Part shown: positions 6,514 to 48,279 of the stretch, piece by piece
Numbering within the stretch: the stretch's first letter is position 1
Layout of the letters: the number at the start of each line of letters is the position of its first letter
NCBI GenBank assembly: GCA_963812655.1
Contig: CAWEWX010000039.1
Location: 159,832-223,831 of the forward strand
DNA length: 64,000 nucleotides
Source: an uncultured delta proteobacterium
Lineage (GTDB): Bacteria; Desulfobacterota; Desulfobaccia; Desulfobaccales; 0-14-0-80-60-11
Direction of reading: 5' to 3'
The notes under the pieces: model-generated
Databases searched by the model: none
What the model saw: only the letters and a program-made list of their open reading frames with translations
What the model was told of the DNA's origin: nothing
Position numbers and translations under genes: made by a program

Positions 6514-6704
6514 TTATTATTACTCAGGGCGAAAAATTGGATTATGAGGTTTTTGACTTTGATTTGCCTTGCCTTTCAGGGAAAACGGTAAACGGGAAAC
6601 GGGTCCAGTTTAACTATGGAGGTTTCATTTAATCCCCTCTCCCCCGATGGGGGAGAGGGTTAGGGTGAGGGGTAATTTAATCTCTTTTCCGCTCCCATTA
6701 ATAA
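6514..6704. repeat. Composite intergenic element (TTATTACTCAGGGCGAAAAATTG ... CCCTCTCCCCC-loop-GGGGGAGAGGGTTAGGGTGAGGGG ... TCTCTTTTCCGCTCCC), copy with internal heptamer insertion
   Basis: Shares both ends with 27134..27254. The central hairpin core recurs at 33303..33372 and 54753..54808 (opposite orientation), and in reduced form at 8655..8703, 18200..18232 and 48096..48134. Confidence 0.8.
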
Positions 6705-6802: not shown

Positions 6803-7948
6803 TCATGGTCTGCTTGGGGCCGCGGCCTCCTCCAGCACCGACAGGGTCTGAGTTACCGTGGCCTCCCAGCTCAGGTGCGCCACCGCACCGGCCGCGGCCC
6901 GGCGCACCTCCGGGGCCTCGCCCCGGGAGAGATATTCCTCCAGAGCCCGGGTCAAGCCGGGGACGTCATTGGCGCGCGCCAGGACCTCCCCGTGGCCATC
7001 GGGGCGCAGGAATTCGGCGGCGCCGTTGGCCCCGGTGGTGACCACCGGAAGGCCGCAACCCAGGGCCTCCAGGACCACGTTGCTGCAAGGATCGTAGATG
7101 GTGGGCAGGGCCAGCACCGTGGCGGCCTGGTAAAAGGGCGCTAGGTCGGCCTGGGGTCCCCAAAACTTGACCCTCGCCGCCACTCCCAGCCGCCGCGCCT
7201 GTCGCTGATAGGAGGCGGGCTCGCCTTTGCCCACCACCCAGAGGACCGCTTCTTGATGCCGCAGACCGCCAAAGGCCTCGAGGAGATAGGTCAAACCTTT
7301 GCGGCCAAACCCGGAACCGGCGAATAACACGAGGGGGCCGGCTGGCGCCCCCAGCCCGGCCCGCAGGGCTGCTCGCTGCGGCGCTTCCAGGGGCCGGAAT
7401 CTCCGCCGGTCCAGGCCGTTGTAAATCACCGCCACCCGTTGCGGGTCCAGGCGGTAATGGCGGATGATCTCCTCCTTCACCTGCTGGGAATTGGCGATGA
7501 CCCGGCGGAGGCCGGGGTCGGCAAAGAGGCGCTCCTCCAGGGCCAGCATCACCCGGTGGAACAGGCTGAGGCCCTGGAAGGCCCGGGCGGCGGGGGAGAG
7601 AAAAGGGGTGCGCAGCTTGAGCCACTCCCGGTGGCAGCCGTCCCCGGCCCGATAAACCTGGGGGGACAGGGTGCGTTCCAGGCTGAAAACCACCTGGGGG
7701 CCGGCCTTTTCCAGGAGCCGGCGGGCGCCCAGCACGTAAGAGAGGAGACGGCCGGTCTTGCCGGGCCACACCGGCACCGGCACATAACCCACCTGCGGGC
7801 CCAGGGCGGCCCGGGCGGTGTCTTCAGCCTCGTTGCCGTAAACCGCCACCTGGTGGCCCGCCGCCGCCAGCCCCTGGGCCAGGTGTTGCACGGTGGTCTC
7901 GGCCCCGCCGGGGCCCCCCACCCTCTGCCTCAACATGGCGATTTTCAT
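6803..7948 (-). CDS. Glycosyltransferase family 4 (LPS core glycosyltransferase-like)
   Basis: GT-B fold hallmarks: N-terminal GGAETTV..LA..L...GH.V and a C-terminal E..G..VVE-type region (NVVLEALGCGLPVV). Sits in an LPS cluster. Confidence 0.85.
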   Translation of the reverse strand: MKIAMLRQRVGGPGGAETTVQHLAQGLAAAGHQVAVYGNEAEDTARAALGPQVGYVPVPVWPGKTGRLLSYVLGARRLLEKAGPQVVFSLERTLSPQVYRAGDGCHREWLKLRTPFLSPAARAFQGLSLFHRVMLALEERLFADPGLRRVIANSQQVKEEIIRHYRLDPQRVAVIYNGLDRRRFRPLEAPQRAALRAGLGAPAGPLVLFAGSGFGRKGLTYLLEAFGGLRHQEAVLWVVGKGEPASYQRQARRLGVAARVKFWGPQADLAPFYQAATVLALPTIYDPCSNVVLEALGCGLPVVTTGANGAAEFLRPDGHGEVLARANDVPGLTRALEEYLSRGEAPEVRRAAAGAVAHLSWEATVTQTLSVLEEAAAPSRP

Positions 7949-8128
7949 GGATTTCCGGTAGCGCCGGCGTCTCGCCCGGGCCGGTATTTGGGTGTCCCCG
8001 GCTTTCCAGCCCGGGGAGCTGCAGGGGCGTTGCTTGCTGCGCCATGACCAGATATTGGGGCACGGCCAGCTCCGCCCCGACGGGAGATTCGCTTGGCCGC
8101 CCCTAAGCCGCCGCTGCCTGTTAAAGGC

Positions 8129-8638
8129 TCAGGTGGTGGCGCCTCTGGCCGCGGCCATGAGTTCGGCCATGGCAGCCTGCTCAAATTCCCCGGCCTTCTC
8201 CGAGCGGGGCAGGGAGGCGGCGCCCTGGATGACCCGCTGGGCCGGGGAGGTGTCCTGTTTGACCTTCTCCACCCTAAGCTCCCACATAGCCATGGCGTCG
8301 CTCATGGCCATGGACTCCTTGAGGAGCCGCACGCTGCCCTGGATGCCCATCACCAGATCCTCGGCGCCCACGATTTCCAGGGAAACCCGGCCGTCCCGGC
8401 GCAGATTGGCGGTGGTGGTGCTGCTCCTCAGGGTGCCCAACAACAGGGTGCGCTCGTCCTTGGCGTAGATGAGGGTAACGGGACAGGTGTTGGGCGCCCC
8501 GTCGGCCCCCACCGTGCCGGCCACCGCGATGATCCGGTTGGGGTTGCGGTTGAAAAGCTGCATCAGATCGATGATCTGCTCTTCCCCGGGTTTCCGGGCC
8601 ACATTGACCAACAGGCGGTCACCCACTATGCGGGCCAT
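8129..8638 (-). CDS. Pyridoxamine 5'-phosphate oxidase-like (split-barrel flavin-binding) family protein
   Basis: The sequence pattern (IIAVAGTVGADGAPNTCPVTL..., LRRDGRVSLEIV) resembles PNPOx-like split-barrel proteins. Start ATG 8638 is preceded by GAGGAG. Confidence 0.6.
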   Translation of the reverse strand: MARIVGDRLLVNVARKPGEEQIIDLMQLFNRNPNRIIAVAGTVGADGAPNTCPVTLIYAKDERTLLLGTLRSSTTTANLRRDGRVSLEIVGAEDLVMGIQGSVRLLKESMAMSDAMAMWELRVEKVKQDTSPAQRVIQGAASLPRSEKAGEFEQAAMAELMAAARGATT

Positions 8639-8844
8639 GGTTTCATCTCCTCTATCCCCCCTCACTCCAGCCCTCTCCCCCGCAAAGCGGCGGGAGAGAG
8701 GCTATGAATGTGAGAAGGTCTGGTTAAATTTGGGGGTCAGTATCCAGGGCGGCCCCTGGCCGCCGTGATCTCAGGAAGCCCCTGCCGGGGCGCCTGTGCC
8801 ACCGGAATGCTTAACCGAAAACCAAAAACCGAAAACCACCGTCT

Positions 8845-9909
8845 TCAAGGCTGGGTAGGGCGACCCCGCGGGTCGCCCCTACCGAAGTGCCGGGCCATGG
8901 CCTCCAGAACCTCCTCCGGCTCGATTTCCGTGAGACAACGGCTGATCTTGGAGCCCTCACAGCCGTCCCTCCCACAGGGGACGCACTGCCAATCCTTCTG
9001 GAGCACCAGGTGGCCTTCGCCCCAGGGCCCCCAGTTAAACGCGCCGCTGGGGCCGAAGAGGGCCACCGCCGGGGTGTCCACCGCCGCGGCCAGGTGCATG
9101 GGGGCGCTGTCCACGCCGAAGAAAAACCGGGCCCGCTGGATGAGGGCCCCCAGTTCCTTGAGGGTGAGGCGGCCGGCCAGGTTGATGGGGGCCAGCCGGC
9201 TCTCCCGGAGGATGGCGGCTAACAGCTCCTGCTCGTGCGCCGCCCGGCTGCCGGTAAGGACCACCGGCAGGCCCCACTCGCCTTGCAGGGCCTCCAAAAC
9301 CCGGGCGTATCCCCGGGGGGTCCAGCACTTGAAGCGCCAGCCGGCCCCGGGGTGCATCACCACAAAGGCGCGGGGGGCCAACCCATGGGAAGCCAGCAGC
9401 TCCTGGGTGCGCTCTTCCACCTGCCGATCCCAATAAAACTGCAGCCGCGGCCCCGAAGGCGAGAGGCCCAAGGCCCGCAAGGCCTCCAGGTTCTGGTCCA
9501 TCAGGTGCATCCTGACCGCGGGCCGGGGCAGGAGGCGGGTAAAGCAGCCGCGGCGCTGCCAGAAAGGCCGGCGGGGGTGGTCGAAGCCCAGCCGTTCCGG
9601 GGCCCCGGAGAGCCGGGCATAGATGGCCCCCCGGTCGCCGCCGGAGAGTTCCAGGACCAGATCGAAGCGGCGGCGGCGCAGTTCCCGGACCAGGCCCAGG
9701 GCCTCCCCCCAGGATTCCTGGCGCCGCTCCACCACCAGGAGGTCGTCCAGCCCCGGGTGCCCGGCCACCATCTCTTCGGTCCCCTTAGGGACCAGGTAGG
9801 TCAGGTGGCAGTGGGGCCAGGCCTCTTTGAGGGCGGCGATCACCGGGGTGGACACCAGCACGTCCCCGGGCTGCTTCAACTTGATCACCAGGATGCGTTT
9901 AGAACTCAT
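8845..9909 (-). CDS. Glycosyltransferase family 9 (LPS heptosyltransferase-like)
   Basis: N-terminal ILVIKLKQPGDVLVSTPVIAAL and C-terminal GVDSAPMHLAAA are GT9 hallmarks. The last ~13 codons run through a palindromic REP (8854..8883). Confidence 0.85.
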   Translation of the reverse strand: MSSKRILVIKLKQPGDVLVSTPVIAALKEAWPHCHLTYLVPKGTEEMVAGHPGLDDLLVVERRQESWGEALGLVRELRRRRFDLVLELSGGDRGAIYARLSGAPERLGFDHPRRPFWQRRGCFTRLLPRPAVRMHLMDQNLEALRALGLSPSGPRLQFYWDRQVEERTQELLASHGLAPRAFVVMHPGAGWRFKCWTPRGYARVLEALQGEWGLPVVLTGSRAAHEQELLAAILRESRLAPINLAGRLTLKELGALIQRARFFFGVDSAPMHLAAAVDTPAVALFGPSGAFNWGPWGEGHLVLQKDWQCVPCGRDGCEGSKISRCLTEIEPEEVLEAMARHFGRGDPRGRPTQP

Positions 9910-25379: not shown

Positions 25380-26960
25380 TCACTTTGGACTGGCCGCCAG
25401 GATGGCCTGGTCCACGCTGCCCTCATACTGGGTGAAATTTTCCCGAAACCGTCCCGCCAGCTCCAGGGCCACCTTCTCGTAGGCACCGCGGTCGGCCCAG
25501 ACCTTCTCGGGGAAGAGGATGTCATCCGGCACCCCCGGGCAGCGGCTGGGCACCATCAGGCCGAAGAAGGGCTCATGGTAGGTCTCCATCTGGTCCAGTT
25601 TCCCGGACATGGCGGCCCGCAACAGGGCGCGGGAGTGGGCGATTTCGATGCGATGGCCCACCCCGAAGGGGCCCCGGGTCCAGCCGGTGTTTACCAGCCA
25701 GCAGGTGGGCCGGTGCAGGGTCACCATCTCCCGGAACAGATGGGCATAGACTGCGGGTGGCATGGGCAGGAAGGGCGCTCCAAAGCAAGTGCTGAAGGTC
25801 GCCTGGGGTTCCTTGCCCAGGCCCCGCTCCGTACCCGCCACCTTGGCGGTGTAGCCGGAGAGGAAATGGTAGGTGGCCTGCTCCGGGGTCAGGCGGGCGA
25901 TGGGAGGCAGCACCCCGAAGGCGTCGCAGGCCAGCATGAAGATGTGCTGCGGATGGACCCCCACCCCGGCCCGGACGATGTTGCGCAGATGGGTGATGGG
26001 ATAGGCGGCCCGGGTGTTCTCCGTCAGGCTGGCGTCGTCCAGGTCCAGGCGGCGGCTGGCCAGGTCGATGCCGACGTTTTCCAGAATGGTCCCGAATTTT
26101 CGGGTGCACTCGTAGATCTCCGGCTCGGCCGTGTGGCTCAGGCGGATCGCCTTGGCGTAGCAGCCCCCCTCGAAATTGAAGATGCCGCCATGGCCCCAGC
26201 CGTGTTCGTCGTCGCCGATGAGCTTCCGCTCCGGGTCGGCGGACAGGCTGGTCTTACCGGTGCCCGAGAGGCCGAAGAACAGGGCGGTGTCCCCGTGTTT
26301 GCCCTGGTTGGCGGAACAGTGCATGGACAGCACTTCCTTCTGGGGCAGGTAGTAATTGAGGATGCTAAACACCGATTTCTTGATCTCCCCGGCATAGGAA
26401 GTGCCACCGATCAAGACCAGCTTCTGGGCGAAGTTTACCAGAATGAAGGCCTCGGAATTGGTGCCGTCGAGCTCCGGGACCGCGTGGAAGCCCGGGGCGG
26501 CGATAATGGTGAAATCCGGGCCGAGATGTTGATGGTCCTGGTGATCCCCCGGGGCCAGGAACATGTTGCGGGCAAACAGGTTTTGCCAGGCGGTGGCGGT
26601 GATCAGGCGGATGTTCATCTGGTAGTTCAGATCGGCGCCGGCATGGCGGTCCTGGACAAAGATCTCCCTGCCCTGGAGGTAGGCCAACAGCCGGTAATGG
26701 ATGAGATCGAATTTTTCCGGGGTGAATGCCTGGTTTTCCCCGCCCCAATGGATCTTGGAGGCGCTGCTAGGCTCCTGGACGATGAACTTATCCTTGGGAG
26801 AGCGGCCGGTATAGGCCCCGGTGCGCACCACCACCGGCCCCAGGTGGGCGATGAGGCCCTCCTGCCGGGAAACGATCTTCTCATACAAGGCCGAAGTGGG
26901 CAGGTTCCAGTGAACCGCGGCCACGTTTCTGATGCCGTGATGCGTCAGATCTTTCTTCAT
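25380..26960 (-). CDS. pckA: Phosphoenolpyruvate carboxykinase (ATP)
   Basis: Kinase-1a motif GLSGTGKTSLS followed by LIGDDEHGW. Length is typical. Confidence 0.95.
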   Translation of the reverse strand: MKKDLTHHGIRNVAAVHWNLPTSALYEKIVSRQEGLIAHLGPVVVRTGAYTGRSPKDKFIVQEPSSASKIHWGGENQAFTPEKFDLIHYRLLAYLQGREIFVQDRHAGADLNYQMNIRLITATAWQNLFARNMFLAPGDHQDHQHLGPDFTIIAAPGFHAVPELDGTNSEAFILVNFAQKLVLIGGTSYAGEIKKSVFSILNYYLPQKEVLSMHCSANQGKHGDTALFFGLSGTGKTSLSADPERKLIGDDEHGWGHGGIFNFEGGCYAKAIRLSHTAEPEIYECTRKFGTILENVGIDLASRRLDLDDASLTENTRAAYPITHLRNIVRAGVGVHPQHIFMLACDAFGVLPPIARLTPEQATYHFLSGYTAKVAGTERGLGKEPQATFSTCFGAPFLPMPPAVYAHLFREMVTLHRPTCWLVNTGWTRGPFGVGHRIEIAHSRALLRAAMSGKLDQMETYHEPFFGLMVPSRCPGVPDDILFPEKVWADRGAYEKVALELAGRFRENFTQYEGSVDQAILAASPK

Positions 26961-26979
26961 TTAGCGCCCCCTGCTTTGA

Positions 26980-27142
26980 TGCCCCAATCCTGAAATTTTT
27001 TGAGTATACTTCAAATTATTTAATCAGCCTATCACGAAAAATCAACTTGGGTTTTTACTATGCGCCAATCCTGAAATTTTCTGAGTATACCTCAGATTAT
27101 TTAATCAGCCCTATCACGAAAAATCAAGTTAGGCTTTTATTA
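26980..27142. repeat. Two tandem copies of an ~81-bp unit directly upstream of pckA, each with a short palindrome
   Basis: Copy 1 is 26980..27060 and copy 2 is 27061..27142, aligned by eye with few mismatches. Palindromes are TTGAGTATACTTCAA (27000..27014) and CTGAGTATACCTCAG (27081..27095). Confidence 0.85.
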
Positions 27143-27254
27143 CTCAGGGCGAAAAATTGATTACCTAGGGAGGTTTTATTTAATCCCCTCTCACCTGACG
27201 GAGGAGAGGCTTAGGGTGAGGGGAAGTTTAATCTCTTTTCCGCTCCCTTAATAA
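27134..27254. repeat. Composite intergenic element, copy 2 (same family as 6514..6704)
   Basis: TTATTACTCAGGGCGAAAAATTGATTACC..GGAGGTTTTATTTAATCCCCTCTCACC..GAGAGGCTTAGGGTGAGGGGAAGTTTAATCTCTTTTCCGCTCCCTTAATAA. Contains the stop codon and last codons of the methyltransferase ORF. Confidence 0.8.
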
Positions 27255-28503
27255 TTTCAGTTTTTTCAGTAAGGCTTCTCTCTTTCCAGATTCTTAGGAA
27301 TTTCTCTTTAAATTTGTGATGGACCGCTAAATCAGGATAGCCCAGTCCGGATTTAATCAAATAGGTATTAATGAATATCTTATTTTTTAGATAGATATAA
27401 GCCGGTATAATATTACCATTGCTTTGAGCATCGGTCTTAATTATAATCGATTTTCCCAGCAACCGGTCGTTTAAATAATTGACGGTTTCCTCTTCCTTAT
27501 CAATAGTTATCCCCAGAAACTTAATAACCTTGCCGTTATTTAATTTAATTTTATTGCCACTGATGATTTGCACTACTTTAACCAGATGATCTTTTTCAGG
27601 TTCCTGGGGCCGGGGGATAGGCTCAGCCTCCTGGATCGCGGGAACATAATCGATTTCCGGCAATCCCCCCAGGTTGCTGCTTCTCCTGATAATTTGCACC
27701 TCCGGGGTAAAGATAGGTAATTTATCCTTAATGCCCAGCTTTTCTTCCAGGATTTCCAGAAAATTTTCATTAATCTCATAACCCAGGGCGTCTCGCCCCG
27801 ATTCCAGGGCCGCCTTGACGGTGGTGCCGCTGCCCAGAAAGGGGTCGAGCACCGTGTCGCCCTGAAAAGAGAACATCCGGATGAGACGCCGGGGCAGCTC
27901 CTCGGGGAACATGGCCTCGTGGCCCAGTTGCCGGGCGCCGCCGAAACGCCAGTGGCCGGAAAAATACTCCTTCCATTCCTCCTTGGTCAACCTGGAGGCT
28001 TCTTTCACCTCTTTCGAGACCTTCCTGCTGGCCCCAGGTTTTTTGAAGATGAGGATGAATTCATAGTCGATCTCCACCAGGCCGTTGGGGGGATACGGGT
28101 AGGAGCCCATGACGTTGGCCCCGCCGCTGGTATTCAGGGTGGTCTTTTTTTGCCAGATAATGGCGCCCAGGTAATCGAAGCCGAGGCGCTCGCATTGGCC
28201 GATGAACTCGGCGTGCAGCGGGATGACCTTATAGCGGCCATAAACCGCGGCCCGGGCGAATTGATCGCCGATGTTGAGGCACAAGCGGCTGCCGGGCCGC
28301 AGGACCCGGAAACATTCGCTCCAGATATGAAACAGGTCGGTGAGGTATGGGTGCAGGCCCTGGCCATGGCCAATCTGGCCCGGCGCCCCATAATCCTTGA
28401 TTTGCCAGTAAGGCGGGGAGGTGACCACGAGGTCAATGGTCGCGGTTTCGATCTCCGGCATGGCTCGGCTGTCGCCGATGATGATTTTGGCCCGGTTATC
28501 CAT
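27211..28503 (-). CDS. DNA methyltransferase (beta-class N4-C/N6-A, SPPY) fused to a degenerate SNase-like OB-fold domain
   Basis: Motif IV DLVVTSPPYW precedes motif I VLDPFLGSGTT (beta order). The C-terminal ~110 aa align by eye with staphylococcal nuclease (VVQIISGNKIKL / FLGITIDKE / IPAYIYL..INTYLIKSGLG / FLRIWKE), but the catalytic positions are substituted. Confidence 0.85.
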   Translation of the reverse strand: MDNRAKIIIGDSRAMPEIETATIDLVVTSPPYWQIKDYGAPGQIGHGQGLHPYLTDLFHIWSECFRVLRPGSRLCLNIGDQFARAAVYGRYKVIPLHAEFIGQCERLGFDYLGAIIWQKKTTLNTSGGANVMGSYPYPPNGLVEIDYEFILIFKKPGASRKVSKEVKEASRLTKEEWKEYFSGHWRFGGARQLGHEAMFPEELPRRLIRMFSFQGDTVLDPFLGSGTTVKAALESGRDALGYEINENFLEILEEKLGIKDKLPIFTPEVQIIRRSSNLGGLPEIDYVPAIQEAEPIPRPQEPEKDHLVKVVQIISGNKIKLNNGKVIKFLGITIDKEEETVNYLNDRLLGKSIIIKTDAQSNGNIIPAYIYLKNKIFINTYLIKSGLGYPDLAVHHKFKEKFLRIWKERSLTEKTEIIKGAEKRLNFPSP

Positions 28504-28640
28504 AGAAAGATGTTGGTAGGGCGGGCCTCCGTGCCCGCCTTTCTAGCCTAAGACCGCACAGGCTGGAAAGCCTGGGCTGCCAGATACCTTTGAGAAGCAG
28601 GCGGAAGATGGTGGGCACTGCCCACCCTACAGGTTTTACT

Positions 28641-28683
28641 CAAAACTCGAAACTTGAAACTCGAAACTCGAAGCTTGAAACTC
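28641..28683. repeat. Tandem heptanucleotide array (AAACTCG/AAACTTG)n
   Basis: caaaactcgaaacttgaaactcgaaactcgaagcttgaaactca, abutting the ruvA stop. Confidence 0.85.
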
Positions 28684-29266
28684 ACTTGGCCAGCCATTTT
28701 AGGCCCTGGCGCAGCAACTCCTCCAGGGTCGAGGCCCCCTGGCCCCGGGCCGCCTCCAGGGCCTTCTCCGCCAGGTTCTTGGAGTAGCCCAGGTTGAGCA
28801 GGGCGCTCAGGGCGTCTTGTATGGGGCCCTGGCCGGAAGCCGCGGCCAGCCGGGGGGCCCCGGCGGCGAGCTGCTTGTCCTTGAGTTCCAGGACGATGCG
28901 CTCGGCGGATTTCTTGCCAATGCCGGGGATGCCGGACAGGCGGCGGATATCCCGCTGGGCCAGGGCCTGGCCGAACTCCCCCGGGCTGATGCCGCTCAGG
29001 ATGTTCAGGGCCATGCGGGCCCCGATGCGGGGGATGCCCAGCAATTGGAGAAACAGCTCCTTTTCCTCCGGGGTCCCAAAGCCGTAGAGATTCAGGGCGT
29101 CTTCCTGCAAGCGGGTGTGGATCAAGAGCGAGATGCGGGCCGGAGGCTCCGGCAGGGCGTAAAAGGTGGACAGAGGGATGTGGACCCGGTAGCCCACCCC
29201 GCCCACCCTGATAACCACCTGGCCCGGGCCTTTGCTGATGATTTCCCCTTCCAGTAAACCGATCAT
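28682..29266 (-). CDS. ruvA: Holliday junction branch-migration complex subunit RuvA
   Basis: MIGLLEGEI...V.VGGVGY.V..P, HhH motifs (IPGIGKKSAERI), C-terminal domain III. Confidence 0.9.
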   Translation of the reverse strand: MIGLLEGEIISKGPGQVVIRVGGVGYRVHIPLSTFYALPEPPARISLLIHTRLQEDALNLYGFGTPEEKELFLQLLGIPRIGARMALNILSGISPGEFGQALAQRDIRRLSGIPGIGKKSAERIVLELKDKQLAAGAPRLAAASGQGPIQDALSALLNLGYSKNLAEKALEAARGQGASTLEELLRQGLKWLAK

Positions 29267-29751
29267 GCGGTCCTCCCCGGCCAGCGCTGGTGGAAGAAGT
29301 GGCAGAGCCCCACCGCCAGGGCGTCGGCGGCATGCTCGTCGGCCACCTTCTCCCCCAAGAGTTGCTCCACCATGAGCTGCACCTGGGCCTTGGATGCCTG
29401 GCCGTAGCCCACCACCGCCTTTTTGACCAGCAGGGGGGGATAATGCCAGACGGGCAGGCTTCTCTGGGCCGCCAGCAGCAGCACCACCCCCCGCACCTGG
29501 CCCAGGGTGAAGGCGGTCTTGACGTTGGCGGCCAGGAAGATCTCCTCCAGGGCCAGGACCTGGGGCTGGTGCAGGCGGATCACTTCCGCCAGGCCGTCAT
29601 AAATCCGGCAGAGGCGGTCGGCCAGGGGGGGCCGGGAGCCGGCCTTGATGCTGCCGGAGGCCAGATGGAGCAGGCGGTCGCCCTCCCCCTGTAAGACCCC
29701 GAAGCCGGTGTGATGGGAACCCGGGTCCACCCCCAAAATAACGGCTCTCAA
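29263..29751 (-). CDS. ruvC: Crossover junction endodeoxyribonuclease RuvC
   Basis: ILGVDPGSHHTGFGVL, and later EE.F.. and ADA.A.. motifs. 4-nt overlap with ruvA. Confidence 0.9.
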   Translation of the reverse strand: MRAVILGVDPGSHHTGFGVLQGEGDRLLHLASGSIKAGSRPPLADRLCRIYDGLAEVIRLHQPQVLALEEIFLAANVKTAFTLGQVRGVVLLLAAQRSLPVWHYPPLLVKKAVVGYGQASKAQVQLMVEQLLGEKVADEHAADALAVGLCHFFHQRWPGRTA

Positions 29752-30497
29752 ATCAAGGCCTCGAGTAATTGATCCGGGATGTCGAAATTGGCGAAGACGT
29801 CGCTGACGTCGTCGTGCTCTTCCAGGAGTTCCACCAGCCTCAGGAGTTGCTGGGCGGATTTCTCTTCATCGATCTTCACCGTGGTCTTGGGGCGCATCTG
29901 GACCTCGGCCAGAGCCGGCGTGAAACCCCGGGCCTCCAGGGCCTCCTTGATCTCCAGGAAGGCGTTGGGGTCGGTGAGCACCTCGAACTGGCTCTCATCG
30001 CTTTGCAGGTCCTCGGCGCCGCATTCCAGGGCGGCCTCCAGGAGTTGGTCCTCAGTGACCTCGACGCGGTCGAAGACGATGACCCCCTTTTTGTCGAACA
30101 TCCAGGCCACGCAGCCGGGCTCTCCCAGACTCCCGCCGTATTTGGTGATTAAATGGCGCACGTCGGAGACGGTGCGGTTCTTGTTGTCGGTGAGGGTCTC
30201 CACCATCAGCGCCACCCCCGCCGGCCCGTAACCTTCCAGGAAGATTTCTTCCAGGACCGCGCCGCCGCCTTCCCCGCTCCCCTTGCGGATGGCCCGGGTG
30301 ATGTTGTCTCCGGGCATATTTTCCGCCTTGGCCGCGGCGATGGCAGCCCGGAGGCGGGGGTTGCCGGTGGGGTCGCCGCCGCCCAGGCGGGCCGCCACAG
30401 CCACCTCTTTCGCCAGCCTGCCGAAGATCCTGCCGCGCTTGGCGTCCACCGCCCCCTTCTTGCGCTTGATGGTGCTCCACTTGGAATGGCCGGACAT
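29748..30497 (-). CDS. YebC/PmpR-family DNA-binding transcriptional regulator
   Basis: MSGHSKWSTIKRKKGAVDAKRG is the canonical YebC N-terminus. ATG 30497 follows GGGAGGAG. Confidence 0.9.
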   Translation of the reverse strand: MSGHSKWSTIKRKKGAVDAKRGRIFGRLAKEVAVAARLGGGDPTGNPRLRAAIAAAKAENMPGDNITRAIRKGSGEGGGAVLEEIFLEGYGPAGVALMVETLTDNKNRTVSDVRHLITKYGGSLGEPGCVAWMFDKKGVIVFDRVEVTEDQLLEAALECGAEDLQSDESQFEVLTDPNAFLEIKEALEARGFTPALAEVQMRPKTTVKIDEEKSAQQLLRLVELLEEHDDVSDVFANFDIPDQLLEALI

Positions 30498-30555
30498 CTG
30501 TTGCTCCTCCCACTGGTTAATCAGAGCATCAAACAAGTCCCTGACGGGAATTTAA

Positions 30556-33000: not shown

Positions 33001-33385
33001 CAGGGACTATCCTGCCGCGATCAGTCCTGGTGTCTTGTTTCAGAAATATCTTAAAAAATATCTGGGGTTTATGTAGCCGCAGGCTTTAGCCTGCGCTCTC
33101 ATTTTTCCCAATTATTTCGCAAGCTAAAGCTTGCGGCTACATTTTAAATGCCTATGAATGCAACCTAGTCCAGAAATTCGTGGGTCAGGCAAACTCATGG
33201 TTGCGCTGGCCTCGCTTTTTAACTAAACTGGCCTCACTGCCAGGCGTCAAAGGGGTTTTGGGGAGCGGTGGCGGGGTTTTCCCGGCGTACCGGCCTGGTA
33301 ATGGGAGCGGAAAAGAGATTAAATTCCCCCTCACCCTAACCCTCTCCCCCATCGGGGGAGAGGGGATAAAGCTGGAACCCCTTTC

Positions 33386-46949: not shown

Positions 46950-47738
46950 ATGCTGAAGCGCACCTTTATCCACCTCAACGGGGTGGGGCCCCGGGGTGAG
47001 GCCCATTTCTGGAACCAGGGGGTGGGGACCTGGGAGGATTTTCTGGGCGCTTCGCGGCTCTCCGGCCTGTCCTGGGACCGGCTCCGGCGCCTCCAGGAGG
47101 AGTTGCGGGAATCCGTGCGCCAGGTGGATGATCCCGCCTACTTCGGGGCCCGCCTGGCTGCGGCGGAGCATTGGCGCCTGTTCCGCGCCTTTAAGCCCCG
47201 GGTCGGCTACCTGGACATCGAAACCACCGGCGCCTACTGGCCGGGGCTGTCGGTCACCGTGGTGGGCCTCTATAACGGCAGCGGCCTCCTGCAACAATTC
47301 GTCCAGGGCCGGAATCTGCAGCAGTTCCCGCGGGCCCTGGCGGACTTCGACCTGCTGGTCACCTTCAACGGCACCCAATTCGACCTCCCGGTGTTAAGGT
47401 CCTTTTTCCCGGACCTGACCCTGCCGCCCCTGCACGTGGACCTGCGCTTTCTCCTGGCCCGCCTGGGCTACCGGGGGGGCCTCAAGAAGATCGAACCCCG
47501 CTTCGGCATCCGGCGGCCCGGAGAGGTGGACGGCATGGACGGCTACATGGCGGTGATCCTCTGGGAGCGCCACCAGCGGGGCGACCGCACCGCCCTGGAG
47601 CTACTCCTGCAATACAACCGGGAGGACGTCGTCAACCTGGAGGTCCTCATGGAACATGCCTTCCGGATGCAGCAAGAGCGGCTGTTGCCGGCAACCCGGT
47701 TCACCCCCGAGGCCCGGAGGGCGCCAGGCAGAATCTAG
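46950..47738 (+). CDS. RNase H-like fold 3'-5' exonuclease-like protein (YprB/RNase_H_2-like)
   Basis: YLDIETTG (Exo I-like DxE), TFNGTQFDLPVL (Exo II-like) and YNREDVVNL (Exo III-like). Backbone-like GC. Confidence 0.7.
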   Translation: MLKRTFIHLNGVGPRGEAHFWNQGVGTWEDFLGASRLSGLSWDRLRRLQEELRESVRQVDDPAYFGARLAAAEHWRLFRAFKPRVGYLDIETTGAYWPGLSVTVVGLYNGSGLLQQFVQGRNLQQFPRALADFDLLVTFNGTQFDLPVLRSFFPDLTLPPLHVDLRFLLARLGYRGGLKKIEPRFGIRRPGEVDGMDGYMAVILWERHQRGDRTALELLLQYNREDVVNLEVLMEHAFRMQQERLLPATRFTPEARRAPGRI

Positions 47739-47949
47739 GGCGGCCCGGGACCGCCATTAATATTGGCGCGCACCGAGCGCGAGACGCACGGGCGAGAGGC
47801 ACAGGCGGGACGCCTAGGCTACCACAATCAGGGGCACGGCAGGCACGCCGTGCCCTTAAGTTTTTTCGGGGTGGCATTGCCGATGCGGTTATGCTACAAG
47901 AGGCGAACCGGCCGGCTTCCCTAGAAGCTATTGGAAAATCTGATTTCAT

Positions 47950-48021
47950 TGTCATCCTGAACGAAGTTAAGGATCTAAAGTCATTAAAAATACGAGATTC
48001 TTCGCTTCGCTCAGAATGACA
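47950..48021. repeat. Inverted repeat TGTCATCCTGAACGAAG ... CTTCGCTCAGAATGACA
   Basis: 17-nt arms (2 mismatches) separated by ~38 nt. Stand-alone hairpin element in the spacer before proS. Confidence 0.75.
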
Positions 48022-48279
48022 TTTTTGGGCAGCTAGGGGTTTGCAATTGCTTTAGTATCGTGTTTCGGGAATATGTTTAAGATATCTTGGCCCTAAAAAC
48101 TCCCCCTCAAGGGAGGGGGAGAAAAGATCTTAATCCTTAGTTAAGATAATCCTGAGACGTTACACTAGCAAAAAATCCCAGGTTGCCAGGCGAGTCCGCA
48201 AACCGCTCGCAGGGCAGGGCGGGCGGCTGGTATATATCGCCAGCCAGATGTGATAAAATGAAGCTGGTTAGGGGCGTTT

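Follow-up and report, generated by a model that had tools for sequence, protein, structure and literature searches.

The restriction-modification (R-M) systems MjaI, MthZI and BfaI are CTAG systems with N4-methylcytosine (m4C) methylases (PMC5867850, PMC7708080), and M.MjaI, M.MthZI, M.BfaI and the related HVO_0794 are 303 to 364 aa long (PMC5867850). Solitary, clade-conserved MthZI-like CTAG m4C methylases of R-M origin are known as well: LomA in pathogenic Leptospira and HVO_0794/HG1 in the Halobacteria, both of which methylate CTAG sites incompletely (PMC7708080, PMC10609329). In the order Desulfobaccales, M.Dac11109III (Desac_2401) of Desulfobacca acetoxidans DSM 11109 is listed as an active Type II enzyme without a restriction endonuclease, and its m4C mark (CtaG) was detected by sequencing with the single-molecule real-time (SMRT) method at 54.6% of the sites (Blow et al. 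2016, PMC4752239, supplementary file 4). Here we analyze a gene of the same order, found in a stretch of 64,000 nucleotides (the window) of contig CAWEWX010000039.1 from an uncultured delta proteobacterium. It encodes a 430-residue protein composed of a DNA methyltransferase core, a linker and a staphylococcal nuclease (SNase)-like C-terminal domain (C-domain). The original prediction, made from the letters of the sequence, described it as an orphan enzyme that had recruited a dead SNase domain and might not be half of an R-M pair. We propose instead, with a probability of about 75%, that it is the solitary, “widowed” methylase of a Type II pair, a beta-class N4-cytosine methyltransferase of the MjaI/MthZI family with a family-wide dead SNase tail and a mosaic history.

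A beta-class methyltransferase core

Residues 23 to 253 matched the Pfam family N6_N4_Mtase (PF01555; E = 8e-42, 144.1 bits against a gathering cut-off of 26.7), and the closest solved structure is that of a putative methylase of Thermus thermophilus (2zie; E = 3.5e-61 over residues 7 to 266). Because motif IV, TSPPY, precedes motif I, FLGSGTT (Table 1), the enzyme belongs to the beta class, as originally predicted. Both motifs are invariant among 45 homologues. No clear Shine-Dalgarno sequence is present 5′ of the start codon.

Table 1 Features of the methylase locus (positions in the window)
Feature	Position	Strand	Remarks
Whole open reading frame (ORF), MjaI/MthZI-family beta-class DNA methyltransferase with SNase-like C-terminal domain	27211..28503	-	430 aa, ATG start at 28503
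Methyltransferase core, residues 1-255	27739..28503	-	GC content at third codon positions (GC3) ~0.76; nearest structure 2zie
Motif IV TSPPY, residues 28-32	28408..28422	-	Family-invariant
Motif I FLGSGTT, S-adenosylmethionine (AdoMet)-binding, residues 222-228	27820..27840	-	After motif IV
Linker, acidic, Pro-rich, residues 256-305	27589..27738	-	Isoelectric point (pI) 4.7; low model confidence
Nuclease-dead SNase-fold domain, residues 306-410	27274..27588	-	Basic, pI 9.8, net charge +9; GC3 0.39
Dispersed repeat resembling repetitive extragenic palindromes (REP-like), gives last ~12 codons and stop of the ORF	27161..27247	.	CTAG at 27165
AT-rich methylase-pckA spacer, with 81-bp tandem duplication	26961..27210	.	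Site of the R.MjaI-like gene in G009/G012
ruvA, upstream syntenic flank	28682..29266	-	Synonymous divergence (dS) 0.16-0.19 to G009/G012
pckA, downstream syntenic flank	25380..26960	-	dS 0.13-0.14 to G009/G012

A family-wide fusion with an MjaI-type endonuclease partner

More than 8000 homologues align with the protein at 64% identity or more over approximately 95% of its length. Full-length relatives at 46 to 65% identity are found across many bacterial and archaeal phyla, including Thermotogota, Aquificota-like taxa, Dictyoglomota, Acidobacteriota, Armatimonadota, the candidate phyla radiation (CPR) and Bacteroidota on the one side, and Archaeoglobi, Thermoplasmata and Methanococci on the other. 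The fusion of methyltransferase and dead SNase domain is the standard architecture of the whole, very large family, which largely disproves the idea that an orphan enzyme recruited the domain.

We clustered the neighboring ORFs of 80 loci. A gene for a protein of approximately 210 aa lies directly downstream of the methylase in 49 of 79 loci from other phyla, mostly overlapping the methylase stop codon, and its product belongs to the Pfam family RE_MjaI (PF09568; E = 8e-49 and 9e-52). A control search with PF09568 yielded a match only in M. jannaschii. Where the endonuclease is present in the family, it always follows the methylase immediately. The genomes compared are labeled G000 for the one under study, G009, G012 and G008 for members of the same genus, and G027 for D. 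acetoxidans DSM 11109. G009 and G012 harbor an intact RE_MjaI gene at the same locus, in the order ruvA-methylase-endonuclease-pckA (E of approximately 1e-93 against the profile of the neighbor genes); their methylase and endonuclease genes overlap, and the endonuclease stop codon overlaps the pckA start as ATGA.

As the original prediction had noted, no endonuclease gene adjoins the methylase in G000, where the neighbors are ruvA and pckA. We found no RE_MjaI homologue anywhere else in this genome by tblastn and hidden Markov model (HMM) searches, in an assembly that is 99% complete (98 contigs, 9% contamination). The methylase can be called widowed because the genome lacks an MjaI-type endonuclease. 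The family-wide fusion and the endonucleases of relatives, both in distant phyla and at the same locus within the genus, thus identify it as one half, now widowed, of an R-M pair of the MjaI type rather than as a separately evolved fusion, contrary to the original suggestion that it might not be half of such a pair. Methylases of this family usually have as their partner a PD-(D/E)xK endonuclease of the MjaI type, encoded directly downstream, which is missing in this lineage.

Two other loci bear on the pairing. In the same-genus genome G004, an RE_MjaI gene lies beside a short-form methylase paralogue with 41% identity to the core (G004:C2:102540-104201); therefore, MjaI-type endonucleases also pair with methylases that possibly lack the SNase-like tail. 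A genome of the sister family, G038, contains two copies of a methylase-endonuclease pair (C54:18236-19780 and C55:22582-24386). Four internal stops interrupt one of the methylases, and an in-frame TGA interrupts one of the endonucleases, such that they look like decaying pairs.

Probable CTAG specificity

The D. acetoxidans homologue, AEB10222.1, is 49% identical to the protein over its full length, including the C-domain (E = 2e-145). Judging from its genome position, AEB10222.1 is very likely Desac_2401, i.e., M.Dac11109III. It shares the three-part architecture and is likewise solitary, but its neighbors are ligA and a gene resembling enoyl-CoA hydratase, and its C-domain is of a different subtype. 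The described MjaI, MthZI and BfaI systems similarly have a beta-class SPPY methylase, and the PF09568 partner is found beside homologues of our gene, including those of same-genus relatives; they differ from the present locus by having an endonuclease. By homology with M.Dac11109III and from the identity of the partner family, the protein most likely methylates CTAG to m4CTAG using AdoMet. The m4C assignment, which the original prediction gave as possible, can thus be raised to probable.

CTAG is the most depleted palindromic tetramer of the genome, with 1806 sites and an observed-to-expected ratio (O/E) of 0.48. Such depletion is common in bacteria with or without R-M systems. CTAG sites flank the gene at position 28543, 40 bp upstream of the start codon, and in the repeat just beyond the stop codon. 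There are no striking CTAG clusters that would mark an origin or a regulon, as the genome contains only 16 clusters of four or five sites. Five sites within 430 bp of repeat-rich intergenic DNA (positions 47735 to 48165) tie for the densest of them. Like LomA and HG1, the enzyme is solitary and conserved in its clade, with a methylation activity that is predicted here from homology. Unlike them, it comes without striking clusters (no more than five sites each), and an intact endonuclease gene persists in some genomes of the genus.

A second, short beta-class methylase of approximately 320 aa is encoded outside the window (G000:C35:84908-85606). It is 38% identical to the core and has a counterpart in nearly all relatives. 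Among the D. acetoxidans methylases, the GTAC m4C orphan M.Dac11109II (Desac_0610) may be of the same kind.

The C-terminal domain is a nuclease-dead SNase fold

The C-domain alone is a sub-threshold match to PF00565 (SNase; 15.5 bits against a gathering cut-off of 21, E = 0.025 to 0.25), and a single-sequence search of PDB sequences with it gave no match. A phmmer search of 1.8 billion representatives returned mostly fragments of the same methylase family, and true SNase-repeat proteins appeared only at E of approximately 1e-5 to 1e-6. At the family level, 68 of 72 C-domains matched PF00565 at E ≤ 1 (best, 2e-10), and their profile retrieved a thermonuclease from the PDB at E = 0.002. We also performed the Foldseek comparison suggested along with the original prediction. 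The AlphaFold2 (AF2) model of the domain has a mean predicted local distance difference test (pLDDT) score of 90, and its top 50 matches are all staphylococcal nuclease or SND1 SN domains (template modeling [TM] scores of 0.63 to 0.79; approximately 0.76 with probability 1.0 for the top matches). The SNase likeness of the C-terminal ~110 residues is therefore far above chance, as the original alignment by eye had indicated.

As in staphylococcal nuclease and the SN domains of Tudor-SN (SND1), the domain consists of an oligonucleotide/oligosaccharide-binding (OB) fold with three helices, and the structural SNase residues Y91, Y93 and N100, invariant or nearly so in the family, are retained as Y369, Y371 and N379. 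In contrast with staphylococcal nuclease, it has neither the Ca ligands nor the catalytic residues. The HMM alignment gave R35 to K328, D40 to T333, T41 to I334, E43 to K336 and R87 to I365, and the D21 to N317 replacement comes from the motif alignment of the original prediction, which we checked by eye. The columns of the Ca ligands D21, D40 and T41 and of the catalytic residues R35, E43 and R87 are not conserved among 72 family members. The D40 column is Lys or Arg in 47 of them and the E43 column in 35, so that Lys and Arg prevail at these two positions, and the R35 column remains Lys or Arg in 58. The median pI of the family C-domains is 9.5. Retention of the fold, together with an acidic metal site turned basic, thus supports a non-catalytic role in nucleic acid binding.

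By analogy with the SND1 SN domains, the C-domain is presumably a binding module and not a nuclease. Its charge and fold are those of a sequence-nonspecific clamp, which would tether the enzyme to DNA. In such a model, the conserved core would perform catalysis and recognition, a flexible acidic linker would join it to the basic SNase/OB-fold domain, and the latter would hold the enzyme on DNA without cutting it. The described MjaI, MthZI and BfaI methylases are probably too short to contain the whole linker and SNase-like domain. Our literature search found no paper describing a nuclease-dead SNase domain in MjaI-family methylases, and automated annotation at one source gives the name [quoted passage not shown] to a homologue. 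In plasmid and phage collections we found relatives of the core only (33 to 45% identity), none with the C-domain.

A probable mosaic gene

The compositional seam reported in the original prediction is real. The GC3 value is 0.755 for residues 1 to 290 and 0.39 for residues 306 to 430, compared with 0.85 for pckA, 0.87 for ruvA and a genome GC content of 0.594. Orthologues down to 69% identity and D. acetoxidans (0.78 versus 0.30) show the seam as well. The switch in G009 lies at approximately residue 240, where GC3 drops to 0.23-0.37 from values of 0.7-0.9; it is 0.25 in the endonuclease gene and returns to 0.81 in pckA.

Divergence between G000 and G009/G012 follows a similar pattern. The dS values are 0.13 to 0.19 for ruvA and pckA and 0.47 to 0.67 for the methylase core, and they are saturated for the linker and C-domain. 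Nucleotide identity is 88 to 99% in the flanks and 51 to 70% over a block that runs from approximately residue 240 up to a point 12 nt ahead of pckA. The breakpoint relative to the same-genus R-M alleles lies at approximately residues 235 to 250 (positions ~27750 to 27800). Within the clade of orphans formed by G000, G013, G007, G005 and G014, the two halves of the gene have similar dS values, and G011 holds a third divergent allele. The simplest reading is a mosaic gene made of a vertically inherited GC-rich 5′ part and an AT-rich 3′ block, with or without the endonuclease gene, and the block would have undergone two or more exchanges within the genus. An AT-rich, horizontally exchanged 3′ third of the methylase gene, plus the endonuclease gene where present, would have recombined onto the vertical 5′ part.

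Alternatively, the seam might have arisen without recombination, through mutation bias or relaxed selection that let the C-domain drift toward AT, or through selection for rare codons or AT-rich 3′ DNA. In all pairs compared, protein evolution of the C-domain is 2 to 4.5 times faster than that of the core, several Desulfobaccales lineages have the seam although their loci differ, and intergenic DNA of this genome is likewise AT-rich, all of which would fit such a scenario. However, drift does not readily account for a genome pair with saturated synonymous divergence in the 3′ part alongside a close 5′ part and two close flanks, for a block that in G009/G012 takes in a complete additional gene and stops abruptly before pckA, or for the similar dS of the two halves in the orphan clade. 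Nor is AT-richness intrinsic to the C-domain, an explanation that we rejected because the domain is GC-rich, and the seam absent, in other high-GC hosts such as Anaerolineae and Armatimonadota. We thus consider an origin of the seam without recombination unlikely.

Retention of the solitary methylase

The methylase is present in 40 of 41 relatives (24/24 in f1 and 14/14 in f2), and an RE_MjaI gene in 5 of the 41, intact in three, including G009 and G012. Across the phylum, its distribution is patchy (13 of 121 genomes). In the orphan clade, the ratio of nonsynonymous to synonymous divergence (dN/dS) is 0.13 to 0.25 for the core and 0.03 to 0.43 for the C-domain; the methylase is kept under purifying selection in this Desulfobaccales lineage. 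The orphan state is either young or reversible, since an intact endonuclease gene persists in some genomes of the genus. Several relatives contain methylase fragments or copies with internal stops. The lone methylase between ruvA and pckA would now act as an orphan whose role may lie in epigenetic marking, in protection from MjaI-type R-M cassettes that invade again, or in both.

Retention without an endonuclease, together with the conserved synteny beside ruvCA, is what one would expect of a dedicated regulatory or anti-restriction methyltransferase that gained a targeting module of its own in the form of the dead SNase OB-fold, and global roles are known for orphan m4C methylases of CTAG, namely LomA (PMC7708080) and haloarchaeal HG1 (PMC10609329). 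Yet the same fusion is found in bona fide methylase-endonuclease operons of many phyla and of same-genus genomes at the same locus, and the C-domain is thus older than the orphan state and no special feature of it. We therefore consider this explanation unlikely. The solitary state and the retention of the gene fit the orphan or epigenetic role envisaged in the original prediction, and the idea that an orphan took up the dead SNase domain as a special regulatory or anti-restriction device was not supported.

In a different view of the tail, linker, dead SNase domain and MjaI-type endonuclease would be exchanged together as a single module, and the hypervariable dead SNase domain would be partner-specific or conflict-driven and not a generic clamp. 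The tail might then, for example, dock or restrain the cognate endonuclease or present a decoy surface in an arms race with anti-restriction proteins, and orphans might keep it for neutralizing incoming MjaI-type endonucleases too. We regard this whole proposal as speculative, with each of these roles correspondingly improbable.

It is very unlikely that the methylase still belongs to a functional R-M pair whose endonuclease is unlinked or of an unrecognized family. Type II endonucleases are hard to recognize by sequence, the assembly is fragmented and partly contaminated, and CTAG is depleted. Against this, the endonuclease of the family always lies immediately downstream when present and none was found in the genome, CTAG depletion occurs irrespective of R-M systems, and in D. 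acetoxidans only 54.6% of the CTAG sites were scored as methylated, with no endonuclease listed (PMC4752239). Equally improbable is a decaying remnant without current function, as might be suggested by the loss of the endonuclease, the repeat that overran the 3′ end and gives a new stop, the loss of the gene in G008 and the damaged copies in relatives, given the intact frame, the invariant motifs, the dN/dS values of the C-domain in the orphan clade and the activity in vivo of the D. acetoxidans homologue, if its name is mapped correctly.

Several points weigh against a widowed, mosaic CTAG methylase with a DNA clamp. The correspondence between AEB10222.1 and Desac_2401 is deduced from position and stated in no table, and the CTAG specificity from a homologue that is 49% identical and from the partner family of relatives. 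An unrelated, unrecognized CTAG endonuclease could lie elsewhere in the 98 contigs. The clamp role is drawn from fold and charge, and the C-domain is probably dispensable for CTAG methylation because the characterized CTAG methylases are no longer than 364 aa. As the C-domain evolves faster in all pairs, part of the divergent island could reflect fast evolution, not replacement, and we identified no donor of the AT-rich block. Finally, the gene is not essential, since G008 of the same genus has lost it.

The ruvA-pckA locus and its repeats

The order FtsJ-YebC-RuvC-RuvA-methylase-PckA is kept across the genus, and a further genus of the family has it as well. No ruvB follows the yebC-ruvC-ruvA cluster (28682 to 30536); the best match to RuvB_N is on another contig (G000:C44:15334-15810), and the methylase occupies the position where ruvB sits in many bacteria. 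A heptamer array, (TTTCGAG/TTTCAAG)n, comes right after the ruvA stop codon (28640 to 28685); beyond it, GC-rich hairpins extend to the start of the methylase gene. A consensus terminator scan performed no better than on shuffled sequences, and a promoter scan gave weak results.

In the complete genome of G008, the CTAG methylase is cut down to its first 31 codons. The ruvA-pckA gap (G008:C1:2840000-2856000, 7084-9902) contains a different SPPY methylase of 376 aa, a PIN-like ORF of 202 aa and an ORF of 126 aa. The gap is thus a hotspot of cassette turnover.

The original prediction correctly placed the end of the ORF in a repeat. The element is 89% identical to positions 6610 to 6696 and has an inverted copy at 33303 to 33370. 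Because the ORF ends in this dispersed repeat, C-terminal length varies among close homologues, from 430 to 458 aa. Neither a profile HMM nor a short-word blastn search detected an endonuclease remnant in the 250-bp spacer between the methylase and pckA. The tandem duplication upstream of pckA (26979 to 27110) is unique to this genome, and G013, G007 and G005 have a single unit.

Implications

The enzyme is ordinary in its identity, and the current understanding of R-M biology is not overturned. The analysis assigns a likely m4C-CTAG specificity, by homology, to a methylase of nearly every sampled Desulfobaccales genome, and shows how “persistent orphans” can derive from mobile R-M cassettes, and exchange parts with them, at one fixed place on the chromosome. 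With its abrupt GC3 switch, the gene is a clean natural example of a mosaic methylase, in which the variable part is the accessory domain, plus the endonuclease where present, and not the recognition domain. A nuclease-dead SNase domain is common to thousands of MjaI-family methylases, and this family-wide tail and the mosaic block of tail and endonuclease are the parts most worth experiment.

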